A program made the translations under genes and the position numbers. A model generated the notes under the pieces. It was not told the origin of the DNA. It was given only the letters and a program-made list of their open reading frames with translations, and ran no database searches. Below are positions 34,806 through 51,951 of a stretch of DNA of 64,000 nucleotides, piece by piece (positions within the stretch are counted from its first letter, which is position 1; every line of letters begins with the position of its first letter). This DNA is from an uncultured Gemmatimonadota bacterium (lineage in GTDB: Bacteria > JAAXHH01), in the NCBI GenBank assembly GCA_951812955.1, contig OX638340.1, positions 3,488,001-3,552,000 on the forward strand. Direction: 5' to 3'.

Positions 34806-36014
34806 ATGGCTGATGATCGACCTGACAGTGCAGGATCCGACTTCGACGGCTCCGGCGGCGAACGCCTGACTTATGAAAGTTCCGGTGTGGATTACGACCG
34901 GATAGATCCGCTGAAGGTCCTCGCCCAGCGCGCGGCGCGGGACACGGGGGCCAACCTCGACGGCGCGGGCGCCCGCGAGGTGGCGGCCAGCCGTGGGGAG
35001 TCGGCGTACGTGGTGGACATCGGCGACGCCTATCTCGCCTCCATCACCGAATGCCTGGGTACCAAGGCCCTGGTGGCGGACGCGATGTGTGAGGCGTCGA
35101 GTGTATTGAGGGCGTCAGAGGAGTCGGAGGAGTCAAAGGCGTCGGAGGCGTCGCGAAGGACCTGGTACGACCACATCGCACAGGACACCATCGCCACGGC
35201 CGTCAACGACATTGTCACCGTGGGCGCCCGGCCCCTGAGCATCCACGCCTACTGGGCGGCCGGTTCGTCGGACTGGTTCGACGACGTGGAACGCATGAAC
35301 GACCTGGTCGAGGGATGGAAGGCGGCCTGCGACGTCCTGGGCGTGGCCTGGGGCGGCGGCGAGACGCCGTGCCTGACGGGCGTGGTGGAGGAAGGCGCCA
35401 TCGACCTGGCCGCGTCCTGCGTGGGCATCATCCGGCCTAAATCACGCCTCACCCTGGGCGAAGACCTCAGCGCCGGGGACGCGATCATTCTCCTGGAAAG
35501 CAGTGGCATTCACGCCAACGGCCTCACCCTCGCGCGCAAGCTGTCCGAACGGCTGCCGGAGGGCTATGCCACCCTCCTGCCCGGCGGCCGGACGTACGGC
35601 GTGGCGCTGCTCGACCCGACCGTGCTCTACCCTCCCGTTACCGAAGCGGCCTTCGCGGCCGGTATCGACCTGCGCTACATCGCCAACATCACCGGCCACG
35701 GATGGCGCAAGATCATGCGACACCCCGGCAGGTTTACCTACCGCATTACCGAAGTGCCCCCCGTTCCCGAGGTGCTGAAGTTCATGGTGGATGAGACCCA
35801 ACAGACCGCGGAAGAAGCCTATGGCAGCCTCAACATGGGCGCCGGCTTCGCCCTCTTCGTCCGCCCGGAAGACGGGGACGCGGCCGTGGCGTGCGCCGAG
35901 ACCGAAGGCATCCGCGCTTGGGTCGCCGGCGTGGTGGAAGATGGCCCCCGCCAGGTGGTCATCGAGCCGCTGGGCGTTACGCTCGCCGGGGAAAGCCTCG
36001 CCCTGCGGGACTGA
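34806..36014 (+). CDS. AIR-synthase-related (PurM/SelD/HypE/ThiL-fold) protein
   Basis: N-terminal SGVDYDRIDPLK and DIGDAYLASITECLGTKALVA. C-terminal-domain motifs GDAIILLESSGIHANGLTLARK and NITGHGW. The last 15 coding nt plus the stop lie inside the repeat at 36003. Confidence 0.6.
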   Translation: MADDRPDSAGSDFDGSGGERLTYESSGVDYDRIDPLKVLAQRAARDTGANLDGAGAREVAASRGESAYVVDIGDAYLASITECLGTKALVADAMCEASSVLRASEESEESKASEASRRTWYDHIAQDTIATAVNDIVTVGARPLSIHAYWAAGSSDWFDDVERMNDLVEGWKAACDVLGVAWGGGETPCLTGVVEEGAIDLAASCVGIIRPKSRLTLGEDLSAGDAIILLESSGIHANGLTLARKLSERLPEGYATLLPGGRTYGVALLDPTVLYPPVTEAAFAAGIDLRYIANITGHGWRKIMRHPGRFTYRITEVPPVPEVLKFMVDETQQTAEEAYGSLNMGAGFALFVRPEDGDAAVACAETEGIRAWVAGVVEDGPRQVVIEPLGVTLAGESLALRD

Positions 36015-36070
36015 GCCGCGGGCTGACTTCTCTGGTCGAATCCTCTATTCTCTACGATTCTATAATCCAG
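36003..36070. repeat. Left copy of an imperfect direct repeat (core CCCTGCGGGACTGAG ... TCTGG.TGAATCCT.TATT) shared with 50243-50300
   Basis: 15/15-nt identical core plus about 20 further matching positions. Overlaps the stop codon of the PurM-like gene. Confidence 0.45.
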
Positions 36071-36643
36071 CGTAACTCAGTGCTTTTAACCATACGGAAC
36101 CGCTGATCGACTCGGTTGTTCGGTCGAGAGGTATCGTTTGAGTCCGTTGAACGTACGATCACGTTGAAAATGGTGTCGCTCTGGATGCTTACGAGACTGT
36201 TTTCGACCTTGAACGAGTCTGGAACGAGCCGCTTTGCCCTTCGTCCGCATAGGCCTTGTCACCGTAGATCGCCTTCCCTGGACGGTCAGTTTTATTGACG
36301 CGGACTTCGCGGGGCATTGACACCTGCCTGGGTTGACCTTGTCGAAAGCCCGGATCTGCCACGAATCCCGCTTTACTACCGTCAGTAAGACTTAGTACCC
36401 CCTCCCCTAATATACTGTACGCGCCCTATCCGTTTGTTTACAATATAATCATATTTAATTCTTATAATTTCACATTTAAGCCACGAGTTATTGATCTTAG
36501 ATTTGATAAGTTAAGACTCCAGCGTTAGTATTATGTTGAAAAATCCAGTTTGATTCACATATTGAATTTATCAATCTCTGAAACAACTGACCCGTTCGTT
36601 TGTGAATACAGGGGCAGCATTTTCTTCCAAAGAATGTACCTCG
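36071..36643. promoter_or_regulatory. AT-rich promoter/leader region, paralogous to 2206-2536
   Basis: Low GC, no ORF. Shared strings CACGAATCCCGCTT(C/T)ACTA and ...GTAC(T/C)TCGATG before the start codon. Confidence 0.4.
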
Positions 36644-39482
36644 ATGACTTTCGAGTTCCGACTTACGTCACGGCGTTTGGGACGCTTCCTCGTCCTGCTG
36701 CTCGCCTGCCTTGCCCTTCCTTTGCTCGTCACGTGCGGCAGGGACACTCCCACGCAGTCACGGACCGCGGTCCCGGCGCGGGTAGTGGTCACGCCTGTGG
36801 CCACGGATCTGGCATCGGCAGGACAGACTGTGCGACTCAACGCCCGGGCGCTTGACGACGCCGGCCAAGAAGTCTCGGAGGCTCCTGTTGCCTGGCGCAG
36901 CACCGACGCGTCGGTGGCGCGCGTGAGCGCGGACGGCGTGGTCACCGCCGTGGGGGAAGGCAGCGCCCTCATAACGGCCATGGCCGGCCAGAAGACGGCT
37001 CAAGCGAAGGTGACGGTGGCGGACCCGGTGCGCGCGGCGCTGCGGGCGCTGTACGAGGCGACGGGCGGGGCGAACTGGAAGAACAGCGACAACTGGCTGA
37101 GCGCCCGGCCCGTTGGCGATTGGTACGGGGTAATCGGCGAGCCATCCGGACCGAGCGGGATTTCGCAACGGAGAACCAGCGCCGGCGGACTGACGCGCCT
37201 GGACCTGTCCGGCAACGGATTGACGGGCGAGATCCCTCCCGTGCTGGGCAGCCTGGCCGGTCTTCGTTATCTGGACCTTTCCGACAACGCGCTGTCCGGC
37301 GCGATCCCTCCTGCGCTGGGCAACCTGTCGTCCCTCGAGACGCTGAAGCTGCACGATAACCGGTTGTCGGGCGAGATCCCTTCGGAACTGGGCAACCTGG
37401 AAAGTCTCCGGGAGCTGTCTCTGCACGGCAACGGGCAACTGACCGGTGCGTTGCCCCTTTCGCTCGCCAACCTGGACCGTCTGGAAACGTTATCCCTTTC
37501 GGGTACGCAGTTGTGCGCGCCGACCGATGCCGCGTTTCAGAACTGGCTGCAAGGAATCGCGAACAGGACCGGCATCTTCAATTGCGGCAACGATACGGAC
37601 GGCGACCGGAACGTGCTGCTCGCCCTGTACAACGCGACGGACGGTCCCAACTGGACGACCCGTACGAACTGGCTGAGCACCCGTCCCCTGTCGTCCTGGC
37701 ACGGGGTGGGCGTGAACGCCGCAGGGCGCGTCGACAGCCTGATCCTCGAAGACAACGCGCTGGCCGGACCGATCCCCGCCAGCCTGGGCAGTCTCGCCGG
37801 CCTCGTGGCGCTGGACGCGAGTGGCAACCAGTTGTCCGGCAGCATCCCGGAGGAGCTGGGCGATCTCTCCGGTCTGGTTACGCTTGATCTCAGCAACAAC
37901 GCGTTGACCGGACCGATCCCGCCGGCGTTGTTCAGCCTGCCCAATCTCGTTACGCTGGAGCTCTCCGGCAATCGGTTTACGGATATCCCGGATACAGACA
38001 TCCCGGATACAGGCACCCCGGTCCTGACGGATCGGGATGTGCTGGTTGCGCTCTACAACGCCACGGACGGCGAGAACTGGACGAACAACACCAACTGGCT
38101 GAGCGACAGGCCGCTAGGGGAATGGCACGGGGTTCGCGTCAATGCGGAGGGGCGCGTCGAAGGACTGGACCTTAGCGCTAACCAGCTATCGGGCCCGATC
38201 CCGACCGAACTCGCAAGCCTCACCAAGTTGACACATCTGTATCTTTACGATAACCAGCTATCGGGCCCGATCCCGGCAGAAATCGCAAGCCTCACCAATT
38301 TGACAGAGCTGGACCTTAGCGAGAACCAGCTATCTGGCCCGATCCCGTCCGAACTCGGCAGCCTCACCAAGTTGGAAGATCTGTGGCTTTTCGGTAATCA
38401 GCTATCGGGTCCCCTGCCCGGAACGTTCACCGGTCTGACAAACTTGGAAAGACTGTCCATCGAAGGAACCGGGTTGTGCGCGCCGACGGACGCGGCCTTC
38501 CAGGCGTGGTTGAGGGGAGTCGATGACAAATCTGGAGTGGTCAACTGTGCCGGCTCAAGCCCAGACCTGATCGTCGCATCGCCATCGGTAAGCGACGACA
38601 CCCTGACGACGGGGCAGTCTTTCACGCTGAGCGCGTCGGTGCGCAACCAGGGCACGGGGCGGTCAGCCTCGACGATCCTGCGCTATTACCGGTCTTCGAA
38701 TTCGACCATCTCATCGTCCGATACGCAGGTCGGCACGGACGCCGTGAGCGCACTGGCCGCATCGGGAACGAGCGCTGAATCGATCAGCCTGTCCGCGCCT
38801 TCGAGCGTCGGGACGTACTACTACGGCGCGTGCGTGGACGAGGTAAGCGGCGAGAGCGATACGGGCAACAACTGCTCTACGGGCGTGCGCGTCACGGTGA
38901 TGGTCGAGGATGACCACGGCGATACTCGGTCTGGAGCGACATCCCCTCGCGCTGAGCGGTTCGGTCTCGGGACGGATTGATCCCGGCACTGACGTCGATT
39001 ACTTCGAGATGGAAGTCACCGAATCGGGAACATTGACGGTCAATACGACCGGCAGCCTCGACACAACGGGCGAACTCGAGGACAATTCAGGCTCCCGCTT
39101 GGCGCGTAATGACGATGGCGGCAGCGGATCTAACTTCAGAATCAGCCATTCGGTGAGTGCGGGAACGTATTACGTCAAAGTGGAAAGCTTTAGCTCGAAC
39201 ACCGGGAGCTACACGATCCACGCGAGTCTGGCGAGCGGCGGCGGTGGCGGCGGTGGTGGCGACGGTGCCTGCGTAGCCGGATTGGTCGTGAATCCCGGTG
39301 AGAGTTGTACGTACAAGGGCTATGACTTTTCCGTTAGTTCCACAGGCAGAGGGAGCATTGCCTTTTTCTCCGCGGGAACCGGTATAGATGCAAGGGGTAG
39401 CACGATCAACGGCGTGCGTTGGAACTTCCATGCCACCCGAAACAGTGGTAGTAACAGTTGGACCATCCATACTGCTGATTGA
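36644..39482 (+). pseudogene. LRR - CARDB - pre-peptidase-C-terminal (PPC) domain lipoprotein, disrupted by a +1 frameshift in a C4 run (38941-38944), or a sequencing error; paralog of the 2537 gene
   Basis: N-terminus MTFEFRLTSRRLGRFLVLLLACLALPLLVTCGRDTPTQSRTAVPARVVVTP, BIG2, 3 LRR cassettes, one CARDB, then ...VEDDHGDTRSGATS, all in frame 2. The PPC domain LALSGSVSGRIDPGTDVDYFEMEVTESGTLTV... continues in frame 0. Removing one C from ATCCCCTCG restores TSLALSGS. Confidence 0.6.
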
Positions 39483-39784
39483 ACGGTTTCACCAGGTACG
39501 CTTCATCTCAATGGTCTTCATCTTCAGATAGTGTCAACCAGATCTGCGTACGAAACACGGCTATCGAAAACCTGGCTGGCATGGAGGAATTGTCATGTTC
39601 GGTAACTGGATTTCGAGAAGCGTCAGACTTTCGGGAACGTGACCATTGTAAGTCCGGCTGAGAAGAGCTTCAGATGCAGTGGGTCTTCTTGAGGCGGTGA
39701 CCTCATTGACACGCGTTCCGTTCAGGATTGACGGTCCATCCTTCCGGACACGTGTAACCGAGCCTGCTCGGCAGGAGGTATGAA

Positions 39785-40336
39785 ATGCGTATTTTACTTA
39801 TGATGATCGTCCTGGTCGCATTGGCCTGTGGCGATGACGATATGCCGACGGCCCCAACTCCCACACCGGAACCGGATCCTGCCGAGAAGCTGATCGGCAC
39901 GTGGAAATACACGGGGAACGATTTCGATACCAAACTGGCCGCCAACGTGCGGAATTACCTGATCGGCGAGGGCCATACTGCGAGCGAGGTCGACAAGGCG
40001 GTATCTGGCGCCCTTGGTGAACTCGACTTGGCGTTAGCCCGTACCTTTAACTTTAGGTCAGACGGAACGGTGATTGTCGACAGCGAACCTCCTTACCGGT
40101 ACCAGGTGTCCGGCAATCGAATAATCATCACGACTTCGGATGGTGAGACTCTTTTCTTGGGGGGTGGTGAGACTCTTTCCGGGGAATACGCCGTTACGGA
40201 CACCGCGCTTACCCTGCATTTTCCAGTAGCCCCGCTGCTGGCGACTGTTGTACCGGAGGACGAAGAGGAAGCGGAACTGATGAGGACCATATATATGGGG
40301 ATAGAGGTCTTGACTATGTATTTCTCGAGGCAGTGA
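39785..40336 (+). CDS. Hypothetical lipoprotein
   Basis: AGGAGG RBS. Signal plus lipobox MRILLMMIVLVALACGDDD. Confidence 0.55.
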   Translation: MRILLMMIVLVALACGDDDMPTAPTPTPEPDPAEKLIGTWKYTGNDFDTKLAANVRNYLIGEGHTASEVDKAVSGALGELDLALARTFNFRSDGTVIVDSEPPYRYQVSGNRIIITTSDGETLFLGGGETLSGEYAVTDTALTLHFPVAPLLATVVPEDEEEAELMRTIYMGIEVLTMYFSRQ

Positions 40337-41082
40337 TTTCTTGTTGAACTGATCACCGTAAATCAGGCGCTTTACTTGATTTCCATGTGGACTGCGCCGC
40401 TCACCAGCATTTAGTATTTTCGCCGACCGCCCTCTGTCGGACTGCGCCTCCCGCCCGTTTTGAAACTGCGCCGCCTGACCGGGACGCATCTGTATTGAGT
40501 ATCTTCTGAGCAAGGAACGTATACGAATCTCTTGAGTGAAGCCAGAGTCCGCACCGGCTGCCTTATTGAAGAGTTCTGCAATCTTAAGGCACCTCTGATC
40601 AACCTGGTTGTTCGATCAAGTGGTATGATCCGAGTCCGTTCAGAGATCGATCACGGTGATAATGATGTCGTTATGGGTAATTGCCTTTGGATTCTTGCCA
40701 AGGTGTTTTCATCCTCGGTCGGGTCCGGGAACAGCTTGGCCTGCCCGGGGTTTCGCCTGATCTAGGCGCACATTCAAATAGGAGGCCATCTACCTCAACT
40801 CCTATGACACCGTGTTGGAACTGATCGGTAGGCTAAATCCCTGTTTCTCGTTCTACAGCCATGAAAGGCAGAATCCGTCGCTGGGTTATCTCGCTCCGGC
40901 CGAGGTACACTTTGAACCGTAGTTTTACGTAGAGGATCCACCTTAAGTCTTACAACCTGTGGTCCATACTTGGTGATAAGTTTGCCATTTTAACATTCTT
41001 TAAACACAAACGTGCTACACGCGAGGAAAACAGTTCGACCTGCGGTGTAAAAACACCGAGCCGTTTGTCGTAACTGCCGATC

Positions 41083-44000
41083 ATGCCAATATCATACAGG
41101 CTGAGTACAATTTTCAATTTTCATTTCTTTTATAGCGTCGTCGCGGTGCTGTCATTCTTCGTACTGGTTACCTGTGGCAAGGACAGTCCGACCCAACCCA
41201 GGCCGCCAAGTCAACCGCCGGTCCAACCACCCACGCCGGTCCAGCCACCTCCTGCTCCGCAACCCTCTCGCATCACCATCACGCCATCCTTGGTGAATCT
41301 CATGGCGATCGGTCAGACGACGCAGCTCACGGCCTCGGTCCTTGATCAGAACGGGCAGCCAGTTCCCGGCGCGGTCGTTGCATGGTCCAGCAGCGATGAG
41401 GATGTCGCCACCGTGAGCGGCCAGGGGTTGGTAACCGCGGTCAGCAACGGTACGGCCACGATCACCGCCATGGCGGGAAGCGTGTCGGCGACCGCCAGCG
41501 TGCGGGTCTCCCAGACCGCTGGCAGCGTCAAGATCGATCCGGACATGGCCACCCTGATGGCCATTGGGGAAACAGCGCAGCTCACGGCCGTGGTACTCGA
41601 CCAGAACGGGCAGCCAGTTCCCGGCGCGGTCGTTGCATGGTCCAGCAGCGATGAGGATGTCGCCACCGTGAGCGGCCAGGGGTTGGTAACCGCGCTCAGC
41701 AACGGTACGGCCACGATCACCGCCATGGCGGGAAGCGTGTCGGATTCTGCTTTGGTCACGGTCCTCGTTCCCAGAACGGACCGGGATGTTCTGATTGCCT
41801 TCTACGAGAGCACTGGTGGTGAGCAATGGACGGTCAGGTCAAACTGGCTTAGCGTACATCCTCTTGAAACGTGGCTTGGCGTGACCGTCAACTCGGAAGG
41901 CCTGGTAACGGAGATCGACTTGCCGAACAACAATTTGCGCGGACCGCTCACGTCCGAGTTAGGTTATCTGGAAGAGCTCGCGACGCTCCGTCTGAACCAT
42001 AACCAGTTAACGGGTCACATTCCTCCGGAACTCGGCCGACTGGCGAAACTGCGTCACCTGGTGTTGTCCAGCAACCAATTGACCGGAGTGATTCCGACGG
42101 GACTCGGTCAATTAACCGGATTAGAGGAACTGTTGCTGTCCTTCAACCGTCTTTCAGGATCCATACCGGGGGAACTGGGTGACCTGAAGGGACTCAAGAG
42201 GCTGTCGCTTTCAGTCAATGAACTGGATGGACCGGTCCCGGCAGAATTGGGACGACTAAAACAACTGACATCGTTGCGGCTGGACCAGAATCGGTTGTCC
42301 GGGTCAATCCCGCTACACCTTGGCGGGATGACGGTTTTGCGGTCAATGGTACTCGCCGACAATCAGTTAACAGGTGCAATACCAGCCCACCTGTCCTCGT
42401 TGGATAATCTCGAAGAACTGGTGCTGGATCACAACAGACTGGAGGGCGGCATACCCTCACAGTTGTACCGACTTGCCAATCTGAAACGGCTTGGACTCGC
42501 CGGCAACCGGTTATCCGGCGGCGTGCCGGCGTTCTTGGGCAGACTCACCAACCTTACGCACCTGCATCTGTTCTCGAATCGCGGTCTTTCCGGTGTCCTG
42601 CCGCGTTCATTCACCGGTCTTCAACTGGAAGAACTGTTGCTTGAAGGCACGCAGCTTTGCGTACCGCCGGATGACGATTACGAGGCATGGTTGGACCAGA
42701 TTCCAGTGAAGACGGTAACGACCTGCTCCAACCTGGAGTCCAGCGTGTTGGCAACGCTGTACAACGCAACGAATGGAATAAACTGGGCGGATAACACGAA
42801 TTGGCTGAGCGACCGGCCATTGGGTACATGGTATGGCGTGACCACGGACGCCGATGGCTACGTGACGGGTATCGATCTTACGAACAACAATCTGAACGGG
42901 TCCGTACCGGGTGAACTGGCTGGCCTTTCGAAGCTCAAATCGCTGAATCTCAGTACCAACGGTTTTTTGAGAGGGCAGTTACCCCGGGAACTCATCAATC
43001 TTGAACTTCGGGAACTGCTGCTGGAAGACACCCGGTTGTGCGCGCCGCCGGACGCCGAATTCCAGGACTGGCTTCAGACCATTCCGGCAAGAAGCGTATC
43101 CACATGTGATGATCTTGATCTCAATTCGCTTAAGGCCCTGTTCGCGCTCTTCAACGACACGAACGGTCCGGGCTGGCATGACCGGACAAACTGGAACAGT
43201 GATGCGCCGCTGGAGGAATGGTACGGCATCACGGTAGACGAGGACGGCAGGATAACCGAACTGAATCTTGCCGGCAACAATCTCAGCGGCTCGCTCCCCG
43301 CTGACCTGGCAGCACTAACGGAACTGGAACGGCTCGATTTCAGCGACAACGAAGGGCTGACGGGCCCGCTACCGCACGAATGGACAGCACTGACCCTCGA
43401 GTATCTGCGGGTGGAAGGAACGCAGTTGTGCGCTCCACCGGATACCGGGTTTCAGGCCTGGTTGAACGAAATCCCCGAGTACGGCATACCGGAATGTACC
43501 GATACCAGGCCGGACTGGGCTGATACCAATCCTGAATGGGATGTCCTCGAACTCTTGTATAATAGTACGAACGGGAAGGACTGGACGAACAATGAGAACT
43601 GGTTAAGCGAAGCGCCCTTGGATCAGTGGTACGGCATAAAGACGGACGAGGAAGGAAGAGTGACTGAACTTAATCTGGAAGACAACAACCTGTCTGGCGA
43701 ACTACCCCCAAGACTGGGAGATCTAATCGGACTCACGTCGCTGGAACTTTCGTTTAATAAACTTTCGGGTTCAATTCCCGCTGAACTCGGACAGTTGACA
43801 GCCCTTGAAACTTTGTTTCTGGACGATAACGCCCTTTCGGGTCCGATACCCGCCGAACTCGGACAATTTTCCGGCCTGCGAAGATTGGATCTGGGCTGGA
43901 ACGATCTCTCTGGCGTGATTCCCGCTGAACTCAGGCAGTTGACGGGCCTTACCTCGCTCGGTCTGCGCTTCAACAACCTTTCGGGCGTGATTCCCGCTTT

Positions 44001-46005
44001 CCTCGGACAGTTGACCGGCCTTGAAACTTTGTATCTGGACGGTAACGCCCTTTCGGGTCCGATACCCGCCGAACTCGGACAGTTGACCGGCCTGCAATGG
44101 TTGCTTTTGGACGACAACAACCTTTCGGGCGTGATTCCTGCTGAACTCGGACAGTTGACCGGCCTGCAATGGTTGCTTTTGGACGACAACAACCTTTCGG
44201 GCGTGATTCCTGCTGAACTCGGACAGTTGACCGGCCTGCGAAGATTGGGGCTGGGCAATAACAATTTTTCGGGGGTGATACCTGCCGAACTCGGACAGTT
44301 GACCGACCTGGGAAGATTGAGGGTGGACAATAACAATCTCTCTGGCTCGATCCCTCGCGAATTAGGTCAGTTGACAAGCCTCAGAACGCTGGATCTTGGC
44401 TCGAATCCCCTTCTGTCAGGCGCGTTGCCCGAATCTATTACGACGCTGCGACTGGAGACGCTTCTACTGGGTAATACGGCACTCTGCATGCCAATGACAA
44501 CCACATTTCGGACCTGGTTGCAGAGTATTCAGAACCACAGGGTGGCTTCTTGTCTCGAGTACACCGGCGCAACCGCGTACATGACGCAGGCCGCACAATC
44601 ACTGGCCCATCCCGTGCCGCTGGTAGCCGGTGAGGCTGCGTTGCTGCGCGTGTTCATAACAGCCGATTCGGACGTAGGAGCGAGCATGCCTCCCGTTCAG
44701 GCAGTCTTCTTCAACGGGAACCAGATCGTCCACTCTGTGGAGATCCCGGAACAGGATACGGCTGTTCCGGAGCGGTTTGAAGAGGGCGCGCTGATGTATT
44801 CAGCAAATGCGGAAGTGCCCGGAACGGTGGTGATGCCTGGTCTGGAGATGGTAATAAATATCGATACGATGGGATCACCAGGCGATGAATCGAACGTAGT
44901 CTTGCGAATACCTGAAACGGGTCGGCAGCCACTGGACGTGAGAACGGTCCCTCCGTTCAATCTGACCCTTGTACCCTTCCTGTGGATGGAAAGCCCCGAT
45001 ATTGGCGTGTTGGCGGAAACGGACGGCTTGACTGCCAACGATGACCTTTTCTGGCAAACGCGCAATCTGCTTCCTATCGCGGATTTCGAGGTAGCAGTAC
45101 GGGAGCCCGTCTGGACTGCGACGGATCCTCTCTATTCATATGAAATATTGCAGGAAACCAAGGCGTTACGGGTGCTGGACGGTTCTGACAGTTACTACAT
45201 GGGCATCCTCCGGGCAGGCGGCGGACAGGCCGAACTGCCCGGTACCTCAAGCGTGTCTGTCCTCGATGCAGAGGTTATCGCACATGAAATCGGGCACAAC
45301 ATCAATCTCTATCATTCCCCGTGTGGTGGCGCTGGTGGACCAGATCCGCTCTACCCCTATGACGACGGCTCGATCGGTTCCTGGGGTTACGATTTCCGTG
45401 ATGGCACCCTCGTCGCTCCCGGGACAGCGGATCTGATGAGTTACTGCAATCCGCAATGGATCAGCGAATATGGGTTCACCCGGGCTATGAATCACCGGGG
45501 CACAGCGCCGCGGCTGATGGCTGCCATCGCCCGATTCAGTTCGAAGGGACTGCTGGTTTGGGGAGGGGTAAATGAGGAAGGTGAATTGGAACTGGAGCCA
45601 AGTTTTGCGGTCAATTCCGGCCCATCAGTCCCCTTGCTGTCCGGACCTTACCGACTCACGGGTCAAGCCGCGGATGGCATCGTTTTATTCTCCGTAGACT
45701 TCGGAATGGCCGAACTGGGAGACGGACCGGGTAATGCCTTTGCTTTCGTACTACCAGTACAACCCGGCCGGGCGGAAAGGCTTTACACCATTACATTGTC
45801 CGGTCCCGAAGGCGTCGCAACCTTAGACAGGGACGGCGATCGCAGCGCTGCGCTGCTGTTGGATCGGGACACGGGAACAGTCCGCGGTATATTGCGTGAC
45901 TGGCTGGATCCTTCAAGCATATCACCCAGCGCACGGCCCACGCTTCCGGAGCCGGGTCTGGAGATCGTCGTAAGCCCCGGCGTTCCCGAACCGGATTCCT
46001 GGTAG
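41083..46005 (+). CDS. Giant surface lipoprotein (1640 aa): Pro-rich linker, two BIG2 domains, 4 LRRNT-like/LRR cassettes with Cys C-caps, C-terminal metzincin-like zinc metalloprotease
   Basis: Lipobox VLVTCGKDSPT. PPVQPPTPVQPPPAPQP linker. VLATLYNATNGINWADNTNWLSDRPLGTWYGV and similar caps. VIAHEIGHNINLYHSPCGG and DLMSYC. Tail PEPGLEIVVSPGVPEPDSW. Confidence 0.85.
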   Translation: MPISYRLSTIFNFHFFYSVVAVLSFFVLVTCGKDSPTQPRPPSQPPVQPPTPVQPPPAPQPSRITITPSLVNLMAIGQTTQLTASVLDQNGQPVPGAVVAWSSSDEDVATVSGQGLVTAVSNGTATITAMAGSVSATASVRVSQTAGSVKIDPDMATLMAIGETAQLTAVVLDQNGQPVPGAVVAWSSSDEDVATVSGQGLVTALSNGTATITAMAGSVSDSALVTVLVPRTDRDVLIAFYESTGGEQWTVRSNWLSVHPLETWLGVTVNSEGLVTEIDLPNNNLRGPLTSELGYLEELATLRLNHNQLTGHIPPELGRLAKLRHLVLSSNQLTGVIPTGLGQLTGLEELLLSFNRLSGSIPGELGDLKGLKRLSLSVNELDGPVPAELGRLKQLTSLRLDQNRLSGSIPLHLGGMTVLRSMVLADNQLTGAIPAHLSSLDNLEELVLDHNRLEGGIPSQLYRLANLKRLGLAGNRLSGGVPAFLGRLTNLTHLHLFSNRGLSGVLPRSFTGLQLEELLLEGTQLCVPPDDDYEAWLDQIPVKTVTTCSNLESSVLATLYNATNGINWADNTNWLSDRPLGTWYGVTTDADGYVTGIDLTNNNLNGSVPGELAGLSKLKSLNLSTNGFLRGQLPRELINLELRELLLEDTRLCAPPDAEFQDWLQTIPARSVSTCDDLDLNSLKALFALFNDTNGPGWHDRTNWNSDAPLEEWYGITVDEDGRITELNLAGNNLSGSLPADLAALTELERLDFSDNEGLTGPLPHEWTALTLEYLRVEGTQLCAPPDTGFQAWLNEIPEYGIPECTDTRPDWADTNPEWDVLELLYNSTNGKDWTNNENWLSEAPLDQWYGIKTDEEGRVTELNLEDNNLSGELPPRLGDLIGLTSLELSFNKLSGSIPAELGQLTALETLFLDDNALSGPIPAELGQFSGLRRLDLGWNDLSGVIPAELRQLTGLTSLGLRFNNLSGVIPAFLGQLTGLETLYLDGNALSGPIPAELGQLTGLQWLLLDDNNLSGVIPAELGQLTGLQWLLLDDNNLSGVIPAELGQLTGLRRLGLGNNNFSGVIPAELGQLTDLGRLRVDNNNLSGSIPRELGQLTSLRTLDLGSNPLLSGALPESITTLRLETLLLGNTALCMPMTTTFRTWLQSIQNHRVASCLEYTGATAYMTQAAQSLAHPVPLVAGEAALLRVFITADSDVGASMPPVQAVFFNGNQIVHSVEIPEQDTAVPERFEEGALMYSANAEVPGTVVMPGLEMVINIDTMGSPGDESNVVLRIPETGRQPLDVRTVPPFNLTLVPFLWMESPDIGVLAETDGLTANDDLFWQTRNLLPIADFEVAVREPVWTATDPLYSYEILQETKALRVLDGSDSYYMGILRAGGGQAELPGTSSVSVLDAEVIAHEIGHNINLYHSPCGGAGGPDPLYPYDDGSIGSWGYDFRDGTLVAPGTADLMSYCNPQWISEYGFTRAMNHRGTAPRLMAAIARFSSKGLLVWGGVNEEGELELEPSFAVNSGPSVPLLSGPYRLTGQAADGIVLFSVDFGMAELGDGPGNAFAFVLPVQPGRAERLYTITLSGPEGVATLDRDGDRSAALLLDRDTGTVRGILRDWLDPSSISPSARPTLPEPGLEIVVSPGVPEPDSW
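41347..41743. repeat. 255-bp tandem duplication (two BIG2 copies) with a 142-nt core identical except for one base
   Basis: 41347-41488 matches 41602-41743, with a single G/C difference. Confidence 0.85.
44089..44232. repeat. Perfect 2x72-bp tandem repeat (one 24-residue LRR, GLQWLLLDDNNLSGVIPAELGQLT)
   Basis: Read directly. Flanked by more diverged LRR units of the same period. Confidence 0.9.
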
Positions 46006-46063
46006 GATCGTTCGACGAGGACGGACGACCAGTCTTGTTGAATTCAATTCAGGATAGCGCTCT

Positions 46064-49000
46064 ATGATTCGACATACAAGACTCACATCGATGACGGTCA
46101 TCATGTTGCTGGCGCTGCCGATCCTGGTCAGGTGCGGCAGGGACAGCCCGACTAAGCCACAGCCGCCGACACCTGCGAGGATCACGGTCACGCCGCAGTC
46201 GCCGACCCCGACGGCTGCAGAACAGATTTCAACACGCGATGACTTGGTTAAGGACGAAAGCGGCGCGGAGATCGCCGATGCAGTTTCGGACAGGGCGGCG
46301 CTGATCGCACTGTATAACGCCACGAACGGTCAGCACTGGACGAACAATAGGAACTGGCTGAGCGAGGCGCCTTTAGGGCAATGGCATGGCGTGACGACCG
46401 ACGAGAATGGGCGGGTACAGCGGTTGAAACTGTTTCAAAACAACCTTTATGGACCTGTTCCAGCCGAGTTGGGAAGTTTGGAAAAGCTCGTTCAGATAGA
46501 TTTTGGGGCAAACAGGCTAAATGGCGTCATACCACCCGAACTGGGAAGTTTAAGCAAACTTGGAGATCTGGGGCTGGGTTATAATAACCTTTCGGGCGCC
46601 ATACCACCCGAACTGGGCAAATTGAGTAACCTTAGTTGGCTGTATCTGGCTGCCAATAACCTTTCGGGCGCCATCCCCGACGAACTGGGCAATCTGGTTA
46701 TAATGCGGTATATGAGTTTTAATAACAACCCCGGCCTGTACGGAACGCTGCCGCTGACTTTCACCAACCTTACTTCTCTGGAATCTCTGTACATAGGTGG
46801 CACGAAGATCTGCGCCCCGCCGACGCCCGAGATGGAGGCGTGGATAGCCACTGTTCCAGATCATGATGTCGCCACCACCTGCGCCGACCTGGATATCGAA
46901 GCGTTGACGGGGTTGTTTAACTCGACTGGCGGGTCGGACTGGACAAACAAAGAGAACTGGCTGAGCGATGCGCCTTTGAGCGACTGGTACGGCATAACGA
47001 CGAATGAAATCGGGCGAGTCAAGGGGCTTAGTCTACCAAATAACAACATGCGCGGGGTGTTGCCTCCGGAGATCGTGGATCTGGCCGCCCTGAGGAATCT
47101 GAACCTGTCTCTCAACGAGGGATTGGCCGGATCATTGCCCTTGAGATTCACCACGCTGAGTCTGGAGTCACTGCGTCTCGAAGGGACGCACGTTTGCGCA
47201 TCCCGGGACGCAAGCTTCCAGGATTGGTTAAATGGCATTCCGAATCGGTCCGTCGCAGACTGTGCCGAACTGGATACGGACGCGCTGGTTGCCCTGATCG
47301 GATTGTACGCGTCCACGGGCGGCAAGAACTGGACGAACAACGAGAACTGGCTGAGCCAGTCTCCCCTGTCCTGGTGGTACGGGGTGACCGTTGATGCCAA
47401 CGGCCGGGTAACTGAGCTGGACTTGTCCGATAACAATCTGAGCGGTGCTCTGCCCGCAAGTATGGGCAAACTGGTGGATTTGAAACTAATCGACCTGGGG
47501 GGCAATACCGGGCTCGTTGGACCACTGCCGGAATCGCTTACCGGGCTTCCAATTGAATCACTTAATCTTGAGGGCACCGGACTGTGCGCGCCTGCCGATT
47601 CAGGCTTCCGGTCCTGGCTAAACGGTATTGGTGGCACGTCCGGTGTCGACGACTGTGCGGAAGATCTTCCGGATTGGCAAGCGCTGGTTACTTTTTACAA
47701 TGAAACAAATGGATCGAACTGGGAGGACAATACCAACTGGCTGAGCGCCGAACCGCTGGATGAATGGTTTGGCGTGTCCACGGACGCTAGCGGACGGGTG
47801 ACTGCTCTGGAGCTTGCCTGGAACAACCTTTTGGGGCCGTTACCTGCCGCCCTGAGTCGTCTGGACAAGCTTGAACGCCTGAATTTAGGAGCAAACGAAC
47901 TGTCCGGCCCTATCCCACCCGATCTGGGCAAGCTGGAAAACCTTCGAGTACTGAATCTGTTCTTTTGTTGGATTTCGGGAACGATACCGCCCGAACTGGG
48001 GAGGTTGACCAATCTTGAAATACTTGATCTCAGTGCGAATGGCAGGACGCTAACCGGCACGCTGCCCGTGGAGCTTGGGAAGCTGGCCAAACTCAAAGTC
48101 CTGGATCTCGGTGGTAACGGTCTGTACGGGCCCATACCGGAAGAGTTGAGCCGTTTGGCGGAGCTCGAGGTCCTGGATCTGCGATGGAACGGTTTTTCTG
48201 GGTCAATTCCCAGAGTATTTGGAAAACTGGCCAATCTCACAGTGTTGCGTCTCAACGGAAACAAGGTGTCGGGCGGGATACCGAGGGAGTTGGGGCTGTT
48301 GTCCGAAATTGAAATTTTGGATATGGGCCGTAATGGCCTGGCGGGGCCGGTACCCGGGGAGTTCGAAAATCTGACCAATCTGAGTGGCTTAAACTTAAGT
48401 AGAAACAATCTGTCCGGCTCGATCCCCGCTGAATTGAGTCATATGAACGCACTGGAGACATTGGATCTTTCATACAATAAACTAACTGCTTCGGTACCTG
48501 GTGGACTGGGTAGGTTGGCCAATTTAAGAGAACTGGTATTGGCCGGAAACACCGGAATGGCCGGACCGTTGCCGGCTGAATTCGTAGAGCTGAATCTCGA
48601 AACGCTCATGTTGGGTGATACCGGGCTCTGCGCGCCACGGGACGCCGAATTTCAGAGCTGGCTTCGTTTCGTTCAGAACAGCCGGGTGACTCCGTGTGCC
48701 GTCCCGGTGGAGGCAACGGCCTACCTGACCCAGGCGAGTCAGTCCCTGGACCATCCCGTCCCCCTGGTCGCGGGCGAAGACGCGCTGTTGCGGGTTTTCC
48801 TGAAGGCCGACGGGGAAACCGACATCCCCATCCCTCCGGTCCGGGCTTCGTTCTATCAAGGCGGCGGGGTTGTCTATATTGCTGATGCACCGGGCGAGGC
48901 TTCGGACGTACCGGCTTCCTTCGAGGAAGAGACACTGACCGCCACGGCCAACGTACGCGTACCGGGTTCTGTAGTGATACCGGGTGTCGAGTTGGTGGTC

Positions 49001-50176
49001 GAGATCGATCCCGACAGGACGTTGGACTCCGCGCTCGGTATCGCCGGCCGCATCCCCGAGACGGGAAGGATTACGCCGGATGTGCGAGAGCTTCCGACCT
49101 TCGATCTGACGCTGATCCCTTTTTTATGGACAGAAGGTCCCGATCATTCCGTGTTGTCCGCAATCGAAGGGCTCACGCCGGAATCCGATCTGATGCGGCC
49201 GACCCGAGATCTGCTGCCGGTGAGCGACTTCCAGTTGTCGGTGCACGCGCCGGTATGGACTTCAGTGGATCCCGTATCCGATAACGTAGGCGATCTCGGA
49301 CCCGAATTGGAGGCCATCTATGCCCTTGAAGGAGAAACAGGCTACTATATGGGCATCTTCAGACTGGCCGGACCGCAGGGCGGACTACTGGGGATAGCTC
49401 AGGATATACCCAGCTACTTGAGTTTCTCCATCCTCGATCCTTACGTCATTGCACATGAACTGGGGCACAACCTGAATCTCTATCATGCGCCATGCGGCGG
49501 TGCTCGCGGCCCCGATCCGTTCTACCCATATGGGGATGGTTCCATTGGGGTTTCCGGATACGATATGATGAATGAATCCCTGGTGAGTCCGCAAACCTGG
49601 GACCTGATGAGTTATTGCGAACCGATGTGGATCAGCGACTATTCCTTTTCCAGGGCGTTGAGCCATCGAATCGCGCTGGGCGCTACGATCCCGCCGGCTT
49701 TTGCGGCCGTCACGAGAGGCCTGCTGGTCTGGGGGGGTCTGGACGAAGCCGGGGAACTCACCCTCGAGCCCGCCTTTGTAGTTGACGCGCCGCTTAAGCT
49801 GCCGGAATCCGATGGTCCGTATACCATCAGGGGAGAGCGCGAAGACGGCAGCAATCTGTTCTCACTTTCCTTTGCCATATCGGAATACGCCGATACCGAG
49901 GGAGGATCCTTCGCTTTCATTGTCCCCGTGCGGGAGACCTGGCCCGGAAACCTGCACCGTATAACGCTTTCCGGTCCCGGGGGGTTTGCCGAGATCGACG
50001 GAGACGGGGACCGTTACATGGCGCTCATGCGGGACAGCGTAACCGGCGAGGTCAGAGGCATTCTCAGAGACTGGCCTGATCCATCGGATACCTCGGCAGC
50101 GGGCCGGCGTATCCCGCCCGAACCCGGGATGGAAATAACAGTCAGCGGTGGTGTTCCCGATCGGGATTCGTGGTAG
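46064..50176 (+). CDS. Giant surface lipoprotein (1370 aa): 4 LRRNT-like/LRR cassettes with Cys C-caps plus C-terminal metzincin-like zinc metalloprotease; 58 nt downstream of the 41083 gene
   Basis: Lipobox ILVRCGRDSPT. ALIALYNATNGQHWTNNRNWLSEAPLGQWHGV. VIAHELGHNLNLYHAPCGG and DLMSYC. Tail PEPGMEITVSGGVPDRDSW. Confidence 0.85.
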   Translation: MIRHTRLTSMTVIMLLALPILVRCGRDSPTKPQPPTPARITVTPQSPTPTAAEQISTRDDLVKDESGAEIADAVSDRAALIALYNATNGQHWTNNRNWLSEAPLGQWHGVTTDENGRVQRLKLFQNNLYGPVPAELGSLEKLVQIDFGANRLNGVIPPELGSLSKLGDLGLGYNNLSGAIPPELGKLSNLSWLYLAANNLSGAIPDELGNLVIMRYMSFNNNPGLYGTLPLTFTNLTSLESLYIGGTKICAPPTPEMEAWIATVPDHDVATTCADLDIEALTGLFNSTGGSDWTNKENWLSDAPLSDWYGITTNEIGRVKGLSLPNNNMRGVLPPEIVDLAALRNLNLSLNEGLAGSLPLRFTTLSLESLRLEGTHVCASRDASFQDWLNGIPNRSVADCAELDTDALVALIGLYASTGGKNWTNNENWLSQSPLSWWYGVTVDANGRVTELDLSDNNLSGALPASMGKLVDLKLIDLGGNTGLVGPLPESLTGLPIESLNLEGTGLCAPADSGFRSWLNGIGGTSGVDDCAEDLPDWQALVTFYNETNGSNWEDNTNWLSAEPLDEWFGVSTDASGRVTALELAWNNLLGPLPAALSRLDKLERLNLGANELSGPIPPDLGKLENLRVLNLFFCWISGTIPPELGRLTNLEILDLSANGRTLTGTLPVELGKLAKLKVLDLGGNGLYGPIPEELSRLAELEVLDLRWNGFSGSIPRVFGKLANLTVLRLNGNKVSGGIPRELGLLSEIEILDMGRNGLAGPVPGEFENLTNLSGLNLSRNNLSGSIPAELSHMNALETLDLSYNKLTASVPGGLGRLANLRELVLAGNTGMAGPLPAEFVELNLETLMLGDTGLCAPRDAEFQSWLRFVQNSRVTPCAVPVEATAYLTQASQSLDHPVPLVAGEDALLRVFLKADGETDIPIPPVRASFYQGGGVVYIADAPGEASDVPASFEEETLTATANVRVPGSVVIPGVELVVEIDPDRTLDSALGIAGRIPETGRITPDVRELPTFDLTLIPFLWTEGPDHSVLSAIEGLTPESDLMRPTRDLLPVSDFQLSVHAPVWTSVDPVSDNVGDLGPELEAIYALEGETGYYMGIFRLAGPQGGLLGIAQDIPSYLSFSILDPYVIAHELGHNLNLYHAPCGGARGPDPFYPYGDGSIGVSGYDMMNESLVSPQTWDLMSYCEPMWISDYSFSRALSHRIALGATIPPAFAAVTRGLLVWGGLDEAGELTLEPAFVVDAPLKLPESDGPYTIRGEREDGSNLFSLSFAISEYADTEGGSFAFIVPVRETWPGNLHRITLSGPGGFAEIDGDGDRYMALMRDSVTGEVRGILRDWPDPSDTSAAGRRIPPEPGMEITVSGGVPDRDSW

Positions 50177-50242
50177 TATCAGCGCTTCGGCTAACTGAGT
50201 CTGCACACGTCAGAAGCCACGCACCCGGCCTTCGAACCCGCC

Positions 50243-50300
50243 ACCCTGCGGGACTGAGTCTGGGTTGAATCCTATTGTATCTCCCCGGCTGACTCCTGCT
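50243..50300. repeat. Right copy of the imperfect direct repeat (CCCTGCGGGACTGAGTCTGGGTTGAATCCTATTGTATCTCC)
   Basis: Matches 36003-36070. Non-coding here, 67 nt after the stop of gene 46064. Confidence 0.45.
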
Positions 50301-50576
50301 GTTTTATTACTCCCTCCTCACTTTTATTTAAAAAAGCAACGAGATCTGCACGAAGATCTCCGACTAATACATTGTAACGGTCAGGCTTCTTTCTTGCAGA
50401 TGCTGAAGAGGTCTAGAGCGATACCGCCGGCAATACATTATGTAAACGAGTTCGCCGGACGTTTCAATGACCGAGACAAGGAACGACCCTGTGTCAGATA
50501 GAGAACATGGTTACGGGTATAGGCGGTATACGATTACATTGTACCGAATGACACCAGTCTGGAGAGGAGCCAGACG

Positions 50577-50828
50577 ATGACCGTAATGTCCCGCGAAAAC
50601 TGGGCCTTTGGAGCGCAGATCGTGTCAGCTATTGGCATCCTCGTTATCGCGATTGTCACCTTCAGCGATCAATCCAACAAGGAATTCCGGGATGAGATTC
50701 GGACCGAATTGACCGGGTTGCGCACGGACATGCGATCCGAATTTGCCTTGATTCGTTCCGAAATTCATGATCTGAACACACGCCTCGGTCGGGTCGAAGG
50801 TTACTTTCGCGTGTCTGGTAACGAGTAG
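50577..50828 (+). CDS. Small single-pass membrane protein with a C-terminal coiled coil (paralog 1 of 3)
   Basis: GGAGAGGAG RBS. TM segment FGAQIVSAIGILVIAIVTF. Heptad-like EIRTELTGLRTDMRSEFALIRSEIHDLNTRLGRVEG. Confidence 0.5.
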   Translation: MTVMSRENWAFGAQIVSAIGILVIAIVTFSDQSNKEFRDEIRTELTGLRTDMRSEFALIRSEIHDLNTRLGRVEGYFRVSGNE

Positions 50829-50953
50829 AGATGATTCCTGCATTCAACGTCTACCGAAGAGCGAGATGAATAGCGATCATTGATGAGTAGCGAAATCTGA
50901 TGAATGGCGAAATCTGATGAAGATCAGTGCGATTAGATACTGAGGAGTCAGTA

Positions 50954-51166
50954 ATGGGTGAAAACGGGATGAGAGATTGGTCGTGGACTCCGATTCTTAC
51001 CATGGCCGGTATGCAGGTTATGATGACCGGTATAATTGTTACAATCATGCTCTACTTAAACAGTGATCTAAGTAATAGGATGCTATCGGTGGAAGAGAAA
51101 TTGAGAGACTTGAATGAAGATGTATCAGGACTGGAGACCAGGCTCGATGAGAGAAAGCAAGAATAG
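50954..51166 (+). CDS. Small single-pass membrane protein with a C-terminal coiled coil (paralog 2 of 3)
   Basis: GAGGAG RBS before the ATG at 50954. TM segment WTPILTMAGMQVMMTGIIVTIMLY. Coiled coil VEEKLRDLNEDVSGLETRLDE. Confidence 0.45.
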   Translation: MGENGMRDWSWTPILTMAGMQVMMTGIIVTIMLYLNSDLSNRMLSVEEKLRDLNEDVSGLETRLDERKQE

Positions 51167-51208
51167 TCAAAGTAGAAACTTGATCTGATCTCAAGGACGC
51201 AGGGTACT

Positions 51209-51502
51209 ATGGAAATCGCTCAACTGGTCGTATCGCCGGCTATCTTGCTGGGAGCATTCATCTTCTTCTGGAAGGAATCCAAAGCGGGAAGAATGGAGCT
51301 GGAAACCCGGCTGGTAAAGCGCATGGATCGCATAGAGGACAGGCTGGATGCACGCATCGTCTCCCTGGAGGACAAGATGGATGCGCGCTTTATCGCTCTG
51401 GAGGACAAGATGGATGCGCGTTTTATCTCTCTGGAGGACAAGATGGATACGCGCATTGGCCGGCTGGAAGGGGTGCTCATCACACAACAGAAGGTGTCCT
51501 GA
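51209..51502 (+). CDS. Small single-pass membrane protein with a C-terminal coiled coil built from three 30-nt repeats (paralog 3 of 3)
   Basis: TM segment LVVSPAILLGAFIFFW. SLEDKMDARFIALEDKMDARFISLEDKMDTRIGRLEG. Confidence 0.5.
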   Translation: MEIAQLVVSPAILLGAFIFFWKESKAGRMELETRLVKRMDRIEDRLDARIVSLEDKMDARFIALEDKMDARFISLEDKMDTRIGRLEGVLITQQKVS

Positions 51503-51516
51503 TCAACGAGTGGAAA

Positions 51517-51951
51517 CTACCTCTCGGATCGCACCACCAGCGTCCGCGCGATGAGATCGTGAAAGGCCTGTCTGTGCTGCGTGAAGACCGCGGCGAGGTA
51601 GCCCGGCCAGAGGACGGGGAGGCACTTGGGAATGGCTCTGAGTGCGGCGCGGCCGAAGGTGGGGGTATATCCCTCGGCGTCGGCCACCCGGATGCCGAGG
51701 ATCATCTTGCCGATCGTGGCGCCGCGCGGTGAACTCTCCATGGCCGCGTAGTAGAACCAGGGCATGAACAACTGGAATGCGCTCATCAGGGGGAGGGTTA
51801 CGGGGTCGGAGTCGGCGCCCAAATATTCGACCGCCAGCGCAATCACCGCGGAGGCCGCGGTGAGGATCGCCAGGTCGATGGCAAAAGCGCCGATCCGCTG
51901 CAGGTGGCCGGCATAGTCTTCGGACAGGGAGTAGCCGGAAATGAAGGTCAC
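51517..51951 (-). CDS. RDD-family membrane protein
   Basis: LQRIGAFAIDLAILTAASAVIALAV ... GATIGKMILGIRV. Probable GTG start at 51951 with GGAGGT RBS, overlapping the upstream stop (GTGA). Confidence 0.55.
   Translation of the reverse strand: MTFISGYSLSEDYAGHLQRIGAFAIDLAILTAASAVIALAVEYLGADSDPVTLPLMSAFQLFMPWFYYAAMESSPRGATIGKMILGIRVADAEGYTPTFGRAALRAIPKCLPVLWPGYLAAVFTQHRQAFHDLIARTLVVRSER

Follow-up and report, generated by a model that had tools for sequence, protein, structure and literature searches.

We analysed a cluster of three small genes, here termed A, B and C, in a 64,000-nucleotide stretch of contig OX638340.1 from an uncultured Gemmatimonadota bacterium (assembly GCA_951812955.1, positions 3,488,001 to 3,552,000; hereafter the window). 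It is near-certain that their products consist of an N-terminally anchored transmembrane (TM) helix and a coiled coil of 11-residue (hendecad) and 7-residue (heptad) units, and the three belong to an undescribed, lineage-expanded, multicopy family for which no curated model exists. For oligomeric state, orientation and role we infer a three-stranded stalk that points into the cytoplasm and acts as a scaffold. Taken as a whole, the reading of these proteins as membrane-anchored structural stalks or scaffolds has, in our judgement, about an even chance of being correct.

Three small genes under purifying selection

An earlier reading of the window's sequence (the initial annotation) had described three open reading frames (ORFs) of 83, about 70 and 97 codons, each with its own ribosome-binding site, and both points hold. 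Gene A is located at 50577-50828 (83 amino acids, aa), gene B at 50954-51166 (70 aa) and gene C at 51209-51502 (97 aa), all on the plus strand. The ATG at 50954 is taken as the start of gene B, and not the GTG at 50927, which would give 79 aa, because the orthologues begin with MGEN or MSEH. Shine-Dalgarno-like purine runs are found 7 nucleotides (nt) ahead of the start of A (GGAGAGGAG) and 6 nt ahead of that of B (GAGGAG), and a weaker one (AAGGA/AGGG) precedes the start of C. Measured against orthologues of related genomes, the ratio of nonsynonymous to synonymous substitution rates (dN/dS) falls between 0.09 and 0.15 in A, between 0.13 and 0.23 in B and between 0.06 and 0.28 in C; the closest orthologue pair (locus L007) alone has higher values (0.35-0.52). 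This purifying selection shows that A, B and C are real coding genes. GC content is 0.43-0.51 across the locus (50200-51400) and 0.55-0.70 in its flanks, which fits A/T-rich spacers and coils rich in K, E, D and M; since the locus is syntenic in relatives, the low GC content is not evidence of recent transfer.

An N-terminal anchor and a hendecad/heptad stalk

Each protein contains a sole hydrophobic segment, located at the N terminus (residues 11-29 in A, 14-32 in B and 3-21 in C), which is an uncleaved TM helix. Single-chain AlphaFold2 models show one helix over residues 3-96 of C, with a mean predicted local distance difference test (pLDDT) score of 84, and two helices in A (residues 4-31 and 35-76) followed by a free tail, with a pLDDT of 60. 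One TM helix per protein together with a charged coiled coil, as initially proposed, is thus borne out by both the hydrophobic segments and the modelled helices. In A, the TM helix (approximately 9-30) is followed by a coiled coil (approximately 35-76), which starts with hendecads (the first two to three units) and turns into heptads towards the C terminus, and by a short non-helical tail; the motif N67-T-R-L-G-R-V-E-G75 at the end is invariant. B carries an RDWSWTP motif near its N terminus, and its TM helix (approximately 14-35) continues into a short heptad coil. C has almost no N-terminal tail, a TM helix at 3-21, a K/R-rich juxtamembrane segment (KESKAGR) and a stalk of five to six hendecads (residues 31-90), each with R-[IFM]-x-x-[IL]-E, and a terminal TRIGRLEG.

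The periodicity of hydrophobic residues is strongest at 3.67 residues per turn for C, at about 3.6 for A and at 3.5 for B. A hendecad corresponds to 11/3, that is 3.67, residues per turn, and its supercoil is slightly right-handed or straight (PMC4786415). The initial description of the coils as heptad-like is therefore right for B and for the distal part of A, but not for C and the proximal part of A, which are built from hendecads. The same plan of a short N-terminal tail, a TM helix and a charged stalk of 7- and 11-residue units is found throughout the family. The TM helices of A and C contain a conserved polar residue (AQ[IL]V), and A, C and most paralogues end in a near-invariant [DN]-M-N-T-R-L-G-R-V-E-G followed by h-L-R-h-S (h, hydrophobic).

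Stalk length changes in steps of 7 and 11 residues

Three tandem units of 30 nt (51364-51453) had been assigned to gene C in the initial annotation. This period is wrong; Tandem Repeats Finder (TRF) and a second repeat search both give 33 nt. TRF detects an array of 33-nt (11-codon) units on the plus strand at 51335-51457 (3.7 copies, 85% matches), and in the second search the 33-nt spacing of degenerate units extends from 51302 to 51466. The central units (51368-51400 and 51401-51433) differ at only 2 of 33 bases. At the protein level the repeat corresponds to hendecads (LEDKMDARFIA), and neither to a 10-residue unit nor to heptads.

Stalk length, defined as the number of residues between fixed sequence anchors, takes 17 distinct values among 24 C-type sequences (25-105 residues) and six among A-type sequences. 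All differences between these lengths can be written as sums of 7 and 11, both for C-type (16/16, where 0.62 of the integers in the range would do so by chance) and for A-type stalks (5/5, chance background 0.31). Some B orthologues are expanded by extra 7-residue VIKQEVD units. Repeat copy number differs even between genomes whose flanking regions have diverged by a dS of only about 0.2-0.3. Because of this change in copy number and the quantised lengths, the case for active repeat evolution is stronger than first stated. The 7/11 length steps show repeat slippage filtered by the need for an in-phase hydrophobic seam, and dozens of orthologues differing almost only in stalk length represent a natural experiment for coiled-coil research.

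A motif of three-stranded coiled coils

The motif R-[ILVM]-x-x-[LIV]-E occurs in 107 of 107 family ORFs (from 62 loci), compared with about 5% of shuffled sequences; by type, it is found in 32/32 A, 20/20 B and 14/16 C sequences. It is invariant in A (RLGRVE, 69-74) and in B, where it is membrane-proximal (RMLSVE, 42-47). In C it occurs once per hendecad, at positions 38 (RMDRIE), 49 (RIVSLE), 60, 71 and 82 (RIGRLE), if F is allowed at the first hydrophobic position; the remaining copies read RFIALE and RFISLE. The pattern Arg(g)-h(a)-x-x-h(d)-Glu(e) is a determinant of parallel three-stranded coiled coils (PMC3653964, PMC6173795), and judging from it the stalks of A, B and C are probably of this kind.

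A second motif points in a similar direction for one family member. In a minimal paralogue of 68 aa (L030, 5650-5856), MATKND directly follows the TM helix, and this type of beta-layer motif is a feature of trimeric coiled coils and of the DUF1640 family (PMC4786415). Another minimal paralogue of 81 aa (L055, 5875-6120) has a loose beta-layer-type MASRDD. Both end in the family's NTRLG(N/R)VEG, and at L055 the pairing of a B-like with an A-like gene recurs at a second locus. These minimal paralogues are a possible evolutionary link to DUF1640 stalks.

A multicopy family in a poorly known lineage

The three genes had been regarded as paralogues of one another, which is confirmed for A and C but not for B. 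Profile-profile comparison (hhalign) aligns A and C end to end, from the TM helix to the tail (probability 86.7%, E 4.3e-6), while pairwise BLAST finds only a 12-residue C-terminal stretch comprising the TRxGRxEG tail (LNTRLGRVEGYF and MDTRIGRLEGVL). Neither pairwise BLAST nor profile-profile comparison detects homology of B to A or C; what B has in common with them is architecture, neighbourhood and the R-hxxhE motif.

Searches retrieved 100 homologues of A, 34 of C and 21 of B, almost all of them unnamed. Among 27 proteins checked, the only name was "hypothetical protein", and the sources were metagenome-assembled genomes (MAGs) of Gemmatimonadetes/Gemmatimonadota and Candidatus Poriferisodalis. 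When one genome of each GTDB species was scanned with two peptide patterns of the A family, 51 loci came to light; they are confined to about 15 MAG species and number at most six in any genome. The labels of these species are Gemmatimonadetes bacterium, Candidatus Latescibacterota or just "bacterium"; their isolate names hint at an origin in sponge and coral metagenome projects, and a literature search by MAG identifier gave nothing usable on the hosts. An hmmsearch over all ORFs of the fetched loci (L numbers) recovered the 107 family ORFs mentioned above, often in tandem, and roughly six to nine genes per genome is a lower bound.

In about 14 genomes the family occupies a syntenic locus that always precedes a convergent RDD gene, beyond which lie genes for MR_MLE, M14 peptidase and saccharopine dehydrogenase. 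Genomes differ in which family genes they have at this locus: A may be alone, or the order may be A-B-C (that of the window), A-A'-B-C, A-C-D or A-B-C', where C' is a form of C that has no TM helix. A is the sole constant member. At L013 and L016, RDD directly follows A, with no remnants of B or C. Around four other paralogue loci we found neither a recurrent partner gene nor phage genes; their neighbourhoods are unrelated (metabolic or sensory), and the paralogues are single or paired.

A profile of the A alignment, searched against 1.84 billion representative sequences, gave 924 matches at E <= 0.001, only 28 of which reached E <= 1e-10. Among the best 147 matches (P numbers), 64 have an N-terminal TM helix and 37 are tail-anchored. 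Many N-anchored matches end in a degenerate form of the terminal motif (NGRLGRVEG, NQRLARIEGYLGIG or RTARIEGHLFG). One N-anchored relative, P0180 (WP_420626646.1) from Candidatus Poriferisodalis (Actinomycetota, Acidimicrobiia), combines an N-terminal TM helix with 7/11-residue repeats (...NGQRLARIEGYLGIG). The TM-stalk architecture is thus not confined to one phylum, and P0180 may hint at a family common to unrelated sponge symbionts.

The stalk profile also matched several very large proteins, P0157 (3006 aa), P0191 (2038 aa), P0224 (1699 aa) and P0186 (1235 aa), in up to 20 stretches each; these may be giant hendecad-repeat proteins. In addition, tail-anchored proteins are encoded about 3.5 kb from a family member at L019 (2147-2686, 179 aa) and L020 (1792-2667, 291 aa). 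They contain long DKMDDRMQSLD-type hendecad arrays with larger nested repeats and differ by more than 100 residues between genomes.

A, B and C are claimed neither by a well-characterised family nor by a curated model: nothing above cut-off was found for them in Pfam, NCBIfam, PHROGs or PADLOC. Among 32 family members and 50 wider relatives, Pfam and NCBIfam gave only matches driven by periodicity (Apolipoprotein, CCDC90-like, Baculo_PEP_C). PF10805 (DUF2730), flagged in precomputed annotations of a few homologues, was not reproduced by hmmscan at E <= 0.1. Profile searches of the PDB returned nothing but the coiled coils of apolipoproteins, viral spikes and GCN4 fusions (E >= 3e-4), and no relative with a solved structure. 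Full-text literature searches gave no match to the motifs. The N-terminal TM helix, the hendecad/heptad stalk and the N-x-R-h-x-x-h-E-G end define a family without a curated model, which occurs in multiple copies in a little-known lineage of uncultured marine bacteria that are apparently host-associated.

Membrane orientation and proposed model

The C-terminal flank of the TM helix contains more lysine and arginine (K+R) than the N-terminal one; this applies to 16/16 C-type, 30/32 A-type and 13/20 B-type sequences and to 42/50 wider relatives. The signal is clear in C, where an uncharged N-terminal tail of two residues (ME) is set against KESKAGR after the TM helix, and weak in A and B. In addition, in at least five genomes a C' gene lacks both TM helix and signal peptide and encodes a soluble hendecad coil of 70-77 aa (MDKRLGTLEARIVALEDK...). 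An ORF survey located such genes at L002-L004 (8874-9089), L010 (6536-6748), L014 (6953-7168), L015 (6637-6870) and L017 (6515-6748). They are under purifying selection (dN/dS 0.13-0.29), which indicates that the C-type coil works in the cytoplasm. For A, B and C we thus lean towards stalks that lie in the cytoplasm (N-out/C-in), as the distribution of charged residues suggests.

The opposite orientation (N-in/C-out) would make the stalks periplasmic and the proteins envelope spacers, tethers or division-type coils similar to Lpp, FtsB and FtsL. We regard this as the main alternative, though an unlikely one. The hydrophobic helix of A and B follows a single arginine (MTVMSRENW in A, ..MRDW in B) and could act as a signal anchor, the net charge of the flanks of A is +1 on the N-terminal and -2 on the C-terminal side, and one paralogue (L021, 5335-5604) combines an N-region that contains K with a lipobox-like LANC. 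On the other hand, the family-wide K+R count favours C-in, C is devoid of any positively charged N-region, the C' copies without TM helix are conserved although they have no export signal, and no match above noise to FtsB, FtsL or DivIC was found. In this orientation, variable stalk length would tune a periplasmic distance.

In the model we propose, A, B and C would be small bitopic inner-membrane proteins, each with an uncleaved N-terminal anchor and one long alpha-helix. These helices would assemble into a parallel, most likely three-stranded coiled-coil stalk, either homomeric or mixed among co-encoded paralogues. The N-x-R-h-x-x-h-E-G element, distal in A and C and membrane-proximal in B, would act as trimerisation or trigger site and in A and C possibly also as docking site. 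The stalk is built of hendecads (11/3) and heptads (7/2), and its length evolves rapidly as 33-nt and 21-nt units are gained or lost in frame, by which the hydrophobic seam always stays in phase. The stalk would most likely project into the cytoplasm (N-out/C-in) and serve as a membrane-anchored structural stalk or scaffold for a partner.

Several observations weigh against this model. B is not demonstrably homologous to A or C, the AlphaFold2 model of A is of low confidence (pLDDT 60), and the invariant glycines G71 and G75 in the terminal motif of A are unusual for a plain coiled coil. The net-charge difference across the TM helix of A and B is neutral or opposite to the K+R count, and the orientation is therefore based mainly on C and on homology. 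Finally, since no conserved partner gene was found and paralogues are located in unrelated neighbourhoods, the scaffold role is what we infer by default.

Surroundings of the locus

A conserved non-coding block of about 70 nt, identified with an nhmmer profile, lies upstream of gene A on the plus strand (50323-50393). It comprises, in this order, an A/T-rich run, the palindrome GAGATCT-N6-AGATCTC and CTCCGACT-N13-GGTC(G/A)G (GGTCGG in the window), and includes two imperfect palindromes. At the syntenic locus, nhmmer placed the block ahead of each A-type gene; it also precedes duplicated A' copies, but is absent before other paralogue subfamilies. RNAalifold detected no covariation in it, Rfam had no match in 49800-51800, and a sigma-70 and terminator scan performed no better than with shuffled sequences. 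The block is probably a promoter or operator region.

The spacer between A and B contains a 17-nt tandem repeat on the plus strand, GATGAATAGCGAAATCT, at 50865-50921 (TRF, 3.4 copies); relatives have a single 17-nt copy, and the expansion by 34 nt is therefore specific to the lineage of the window. Non-coding DNA at the locus is thus also repeat-prone. At L007, a different 16-nt tandem repeat is located in the leader of A.

The initial annotation placed the three genes between an islet of leucine-rich repeat (LRR) and protease genes and a group of metabolic genes. The neighbours are as stated, but the link to the islet is incidental. The LRR/Big_2/M66-like genes (36602-38980, 41083-46005 and 46064-50176) are part of an insertion of about 14.2 kb (approximately 36016-50258), recognised by comparison with L011 and L005, where selA and selD are directly upstream of A, and absent from most relatives. 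The island is bracketed by an imperfect direct repeat of about 50 nt which copies the 3' end of selD (CCCTGCGGGACTGAG at 36001-36015 and 50244-50258) and which looks like a scar of integration or recombination. Because the islet is a lineage-specific insertion, its adjacency to the three genes is of secondary importance.

Relationship to known stalk families and other readings

Comparison with XhlA, DUF1640 and Bdr-like profiles, a check that the initial annotation had suggested, gave no match for A, B or C. The nearest known kinds are Borrelia Bdr and the DUF1640/CCDC90-like family (PF07798), which includes MCUR1, CCDC90B, yeast Put6/Put7 and prokaryotic members. DUF1640 proteins have a head domain at the N terminus, an ATK beta-layer where the stalk begins, and a TM helix at the C-terminal end of the stalk (PMC7519068, PMC4786415). 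Like A, B and C, they are small single-pass proteins with a long stalk of 11-residue periodicity; their repeats, of the type E-x-x-x-[LIV]-R-x-E-[LM], are similar to those in the A family, and they have the beta-layer motif in common with the minimal paralogue L030 (MATKND). In contrast, A, B and C are anchored at the N terminus, have neither a head nor a C-terminal TM helix, and end in N-x-R-h-x-x-h-E-G. They also lack the beta-layer motif [aliphatic]-A-T-K-[polar]-[DE] (PMC4786415), whether it is defined strictly or loosely. The hendecad stalk, seen in the 33-nt repeats and the 3.67 peak of C and in the first units of A, is the only defining characteristic of DUF1640 found in them.

A, B and C might be divergent, anchor-permuted DUF1640/CCDC90-like proteins with a homologous stalk, a lost head and a TM helix that moved to the N terminus. 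The A profile retrieves many tail-anchored hendecad proteins, several of which pass PF07798 (34.4-41.7 bits, cut-off 33.5 bits) and are genuine CCDC90-like/DUF1640 proteins. N-anchored relatives reach 28-29 bits, with the stalk part only; in the wider N-anchored set, 23/50 match PF07798 at E <= 1e-3, and MATKND occurs in one minimal paralogue. Within the A family, 5/32 members match PF07798, all below threshold (best E 4.5e-4). However, A, B and C themselves have no PF07798 match, nor do they have a head domain, an ATK motif or a TM helix at the C terminus. The similarity is confined to the low-complexity periodic stalk, where convergence is easy and where Apolipoprotein is matched equally well. 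We therefore regard common descent with DUF1640 as doubtful.

A role in symbiosis is a far more speculative reading. The family could be an invention specific to sponge and coral symbionts, spanning Latescibacterota/Gemmatimonadota and the actinobacterial Candidatus Poriferisodalis, in which a length-tunable trimeric stalk with selected 7/11 polymorphism would serve as ruler or tether in a membrane process of symbiosis; we consider this improbable. If true, it would bear on contact with host membranes, the tethering of vesicles or compartments, or evasion of phagosome maturation. Even less probable are host-interaction factors proper, for example SNARE-like or membrane-tethering mimics that would be delivered or exposed to the animal host and whose stalk-length polymorphism would be driven by host pressure. 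MAG isolate names that point to sponge and coral projects, a relative of the same architecture in another phylum (Candidatus Poriferisodalis), eukaryote-like LRR genes adjoining the small genes in the window and extreme repeat polymorphism would fit such a role. Against it stand the lack of a secretion signal and the predicted inner-membrane anchor, the nature of the LRR adjacency as a lineage-specific insertion, and the low dN/dS, from which it follows that the sequence of the family is not diversifying and only length varies.

The initial annotation had likened the three proteins to XhlA and to other holin-associated modules of phage lysis. Like A, B and C, XhlA is a small protein with a coiled coil and a single TM helix. 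In XhlA, which is associated with lysis in the PBSX prophage, the coil precedes a TM helix at the C terminus; in A, B and C the TM helix is N-terminal. XhlA is encoded in phage lysis cassettes, whereas A, B and C are in no phage context. That the genes form an XhlA-like, holin-associated or otherwise phage-derived lysis or membrane-toxin module is hardly credible: small proteins with a TM helix and a coil do occur in lysis cassettes, insignificant PHROG matches to holin, spanin and hemolysin families were obtained (E 0.17-0.38) and GC content dips to 0.43-0.51 over the locus, but PF10779 is not matched by A, B or C even at E <= 10 (gathering score 34.7 bits; only the distant relatives P0130 and the third gene of L001 score, with 22.0 and 16.6 bits), the locus keeps its chromosomal synteny among relatives and has neither an endolysin gene nor any other phage gene nearby, at least six to nine copies per genome are scattered over metabolic neighbourhoods, and the whole coil is under purifying selection. 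The genes around the locus are the LRR/M66-like, RDD, MR_MLE, M14 peptidase and saccharopine dehydrogenase genes named above, in agreement with the initial statement that phage genes are missing. A tblastn search of 50,697 phage records (INPHARED) found nothing for A and for C only repeat-driven matches to hypothetical proteins at E >= 0.02, two scans of 2.9 million IMG/VR contigs found no relatives of the family, and PADLOC gave no match to defence systems for A, B or C. The likeness to phage lysis thus fails with respect to profile, topology, context and viral collections, which argues against reflexive holin-like or XhlA-like labels for small genes of this type in genome annotation. A type I toxin-antitoxin system was considered for a terminator-like hairpin on the minus strand (50360-50341), and was rejected in view of the lack of a conserved antisense element and the purifying selection on the whole coil.

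Among other membrane stalks, the peripheral-stalk subunit b of the F-type ATP synthase forms a right-handed dimer. It has about 156 aa and a C-terminal domain that binds delta, and its gene belongs to the atp operon. A, B and C are shorter, multicopy and outside any atp context, and their motifs are of the trimer type; one distant relative has a weak NCBIfam match to ATP synthase subunit b'.

The Bdr proteins of Borrelia are the best functional analogy for the family. Their genes are borne by plasmids or prophages (cp32) and the proteins have a C-terminal hydrophobic anchor, whereas A, B and C are encoded on the chromosome, have their anchor at the N terminus and come from an unrelated phylum. 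Bdr proteins are located in the inner membrane, are encoded by 18 genes in B. burgdorferi and contain internal tandem repeats, whose number differs between otherwise near-identical strains; their function is unknown (PMC2525819, PMC3303823). As in the family described here, many paralogous copies are thus combined with a variable number of internal repeats, which is analogy and not homology: no Bdr model in Pfam or NCBIfam matches A, B, C or other family members. Membrane stalks of the DUF1640-like and Bdr-like kind are already known, and what is new in A, B and C is the anchoring at the opposite end.

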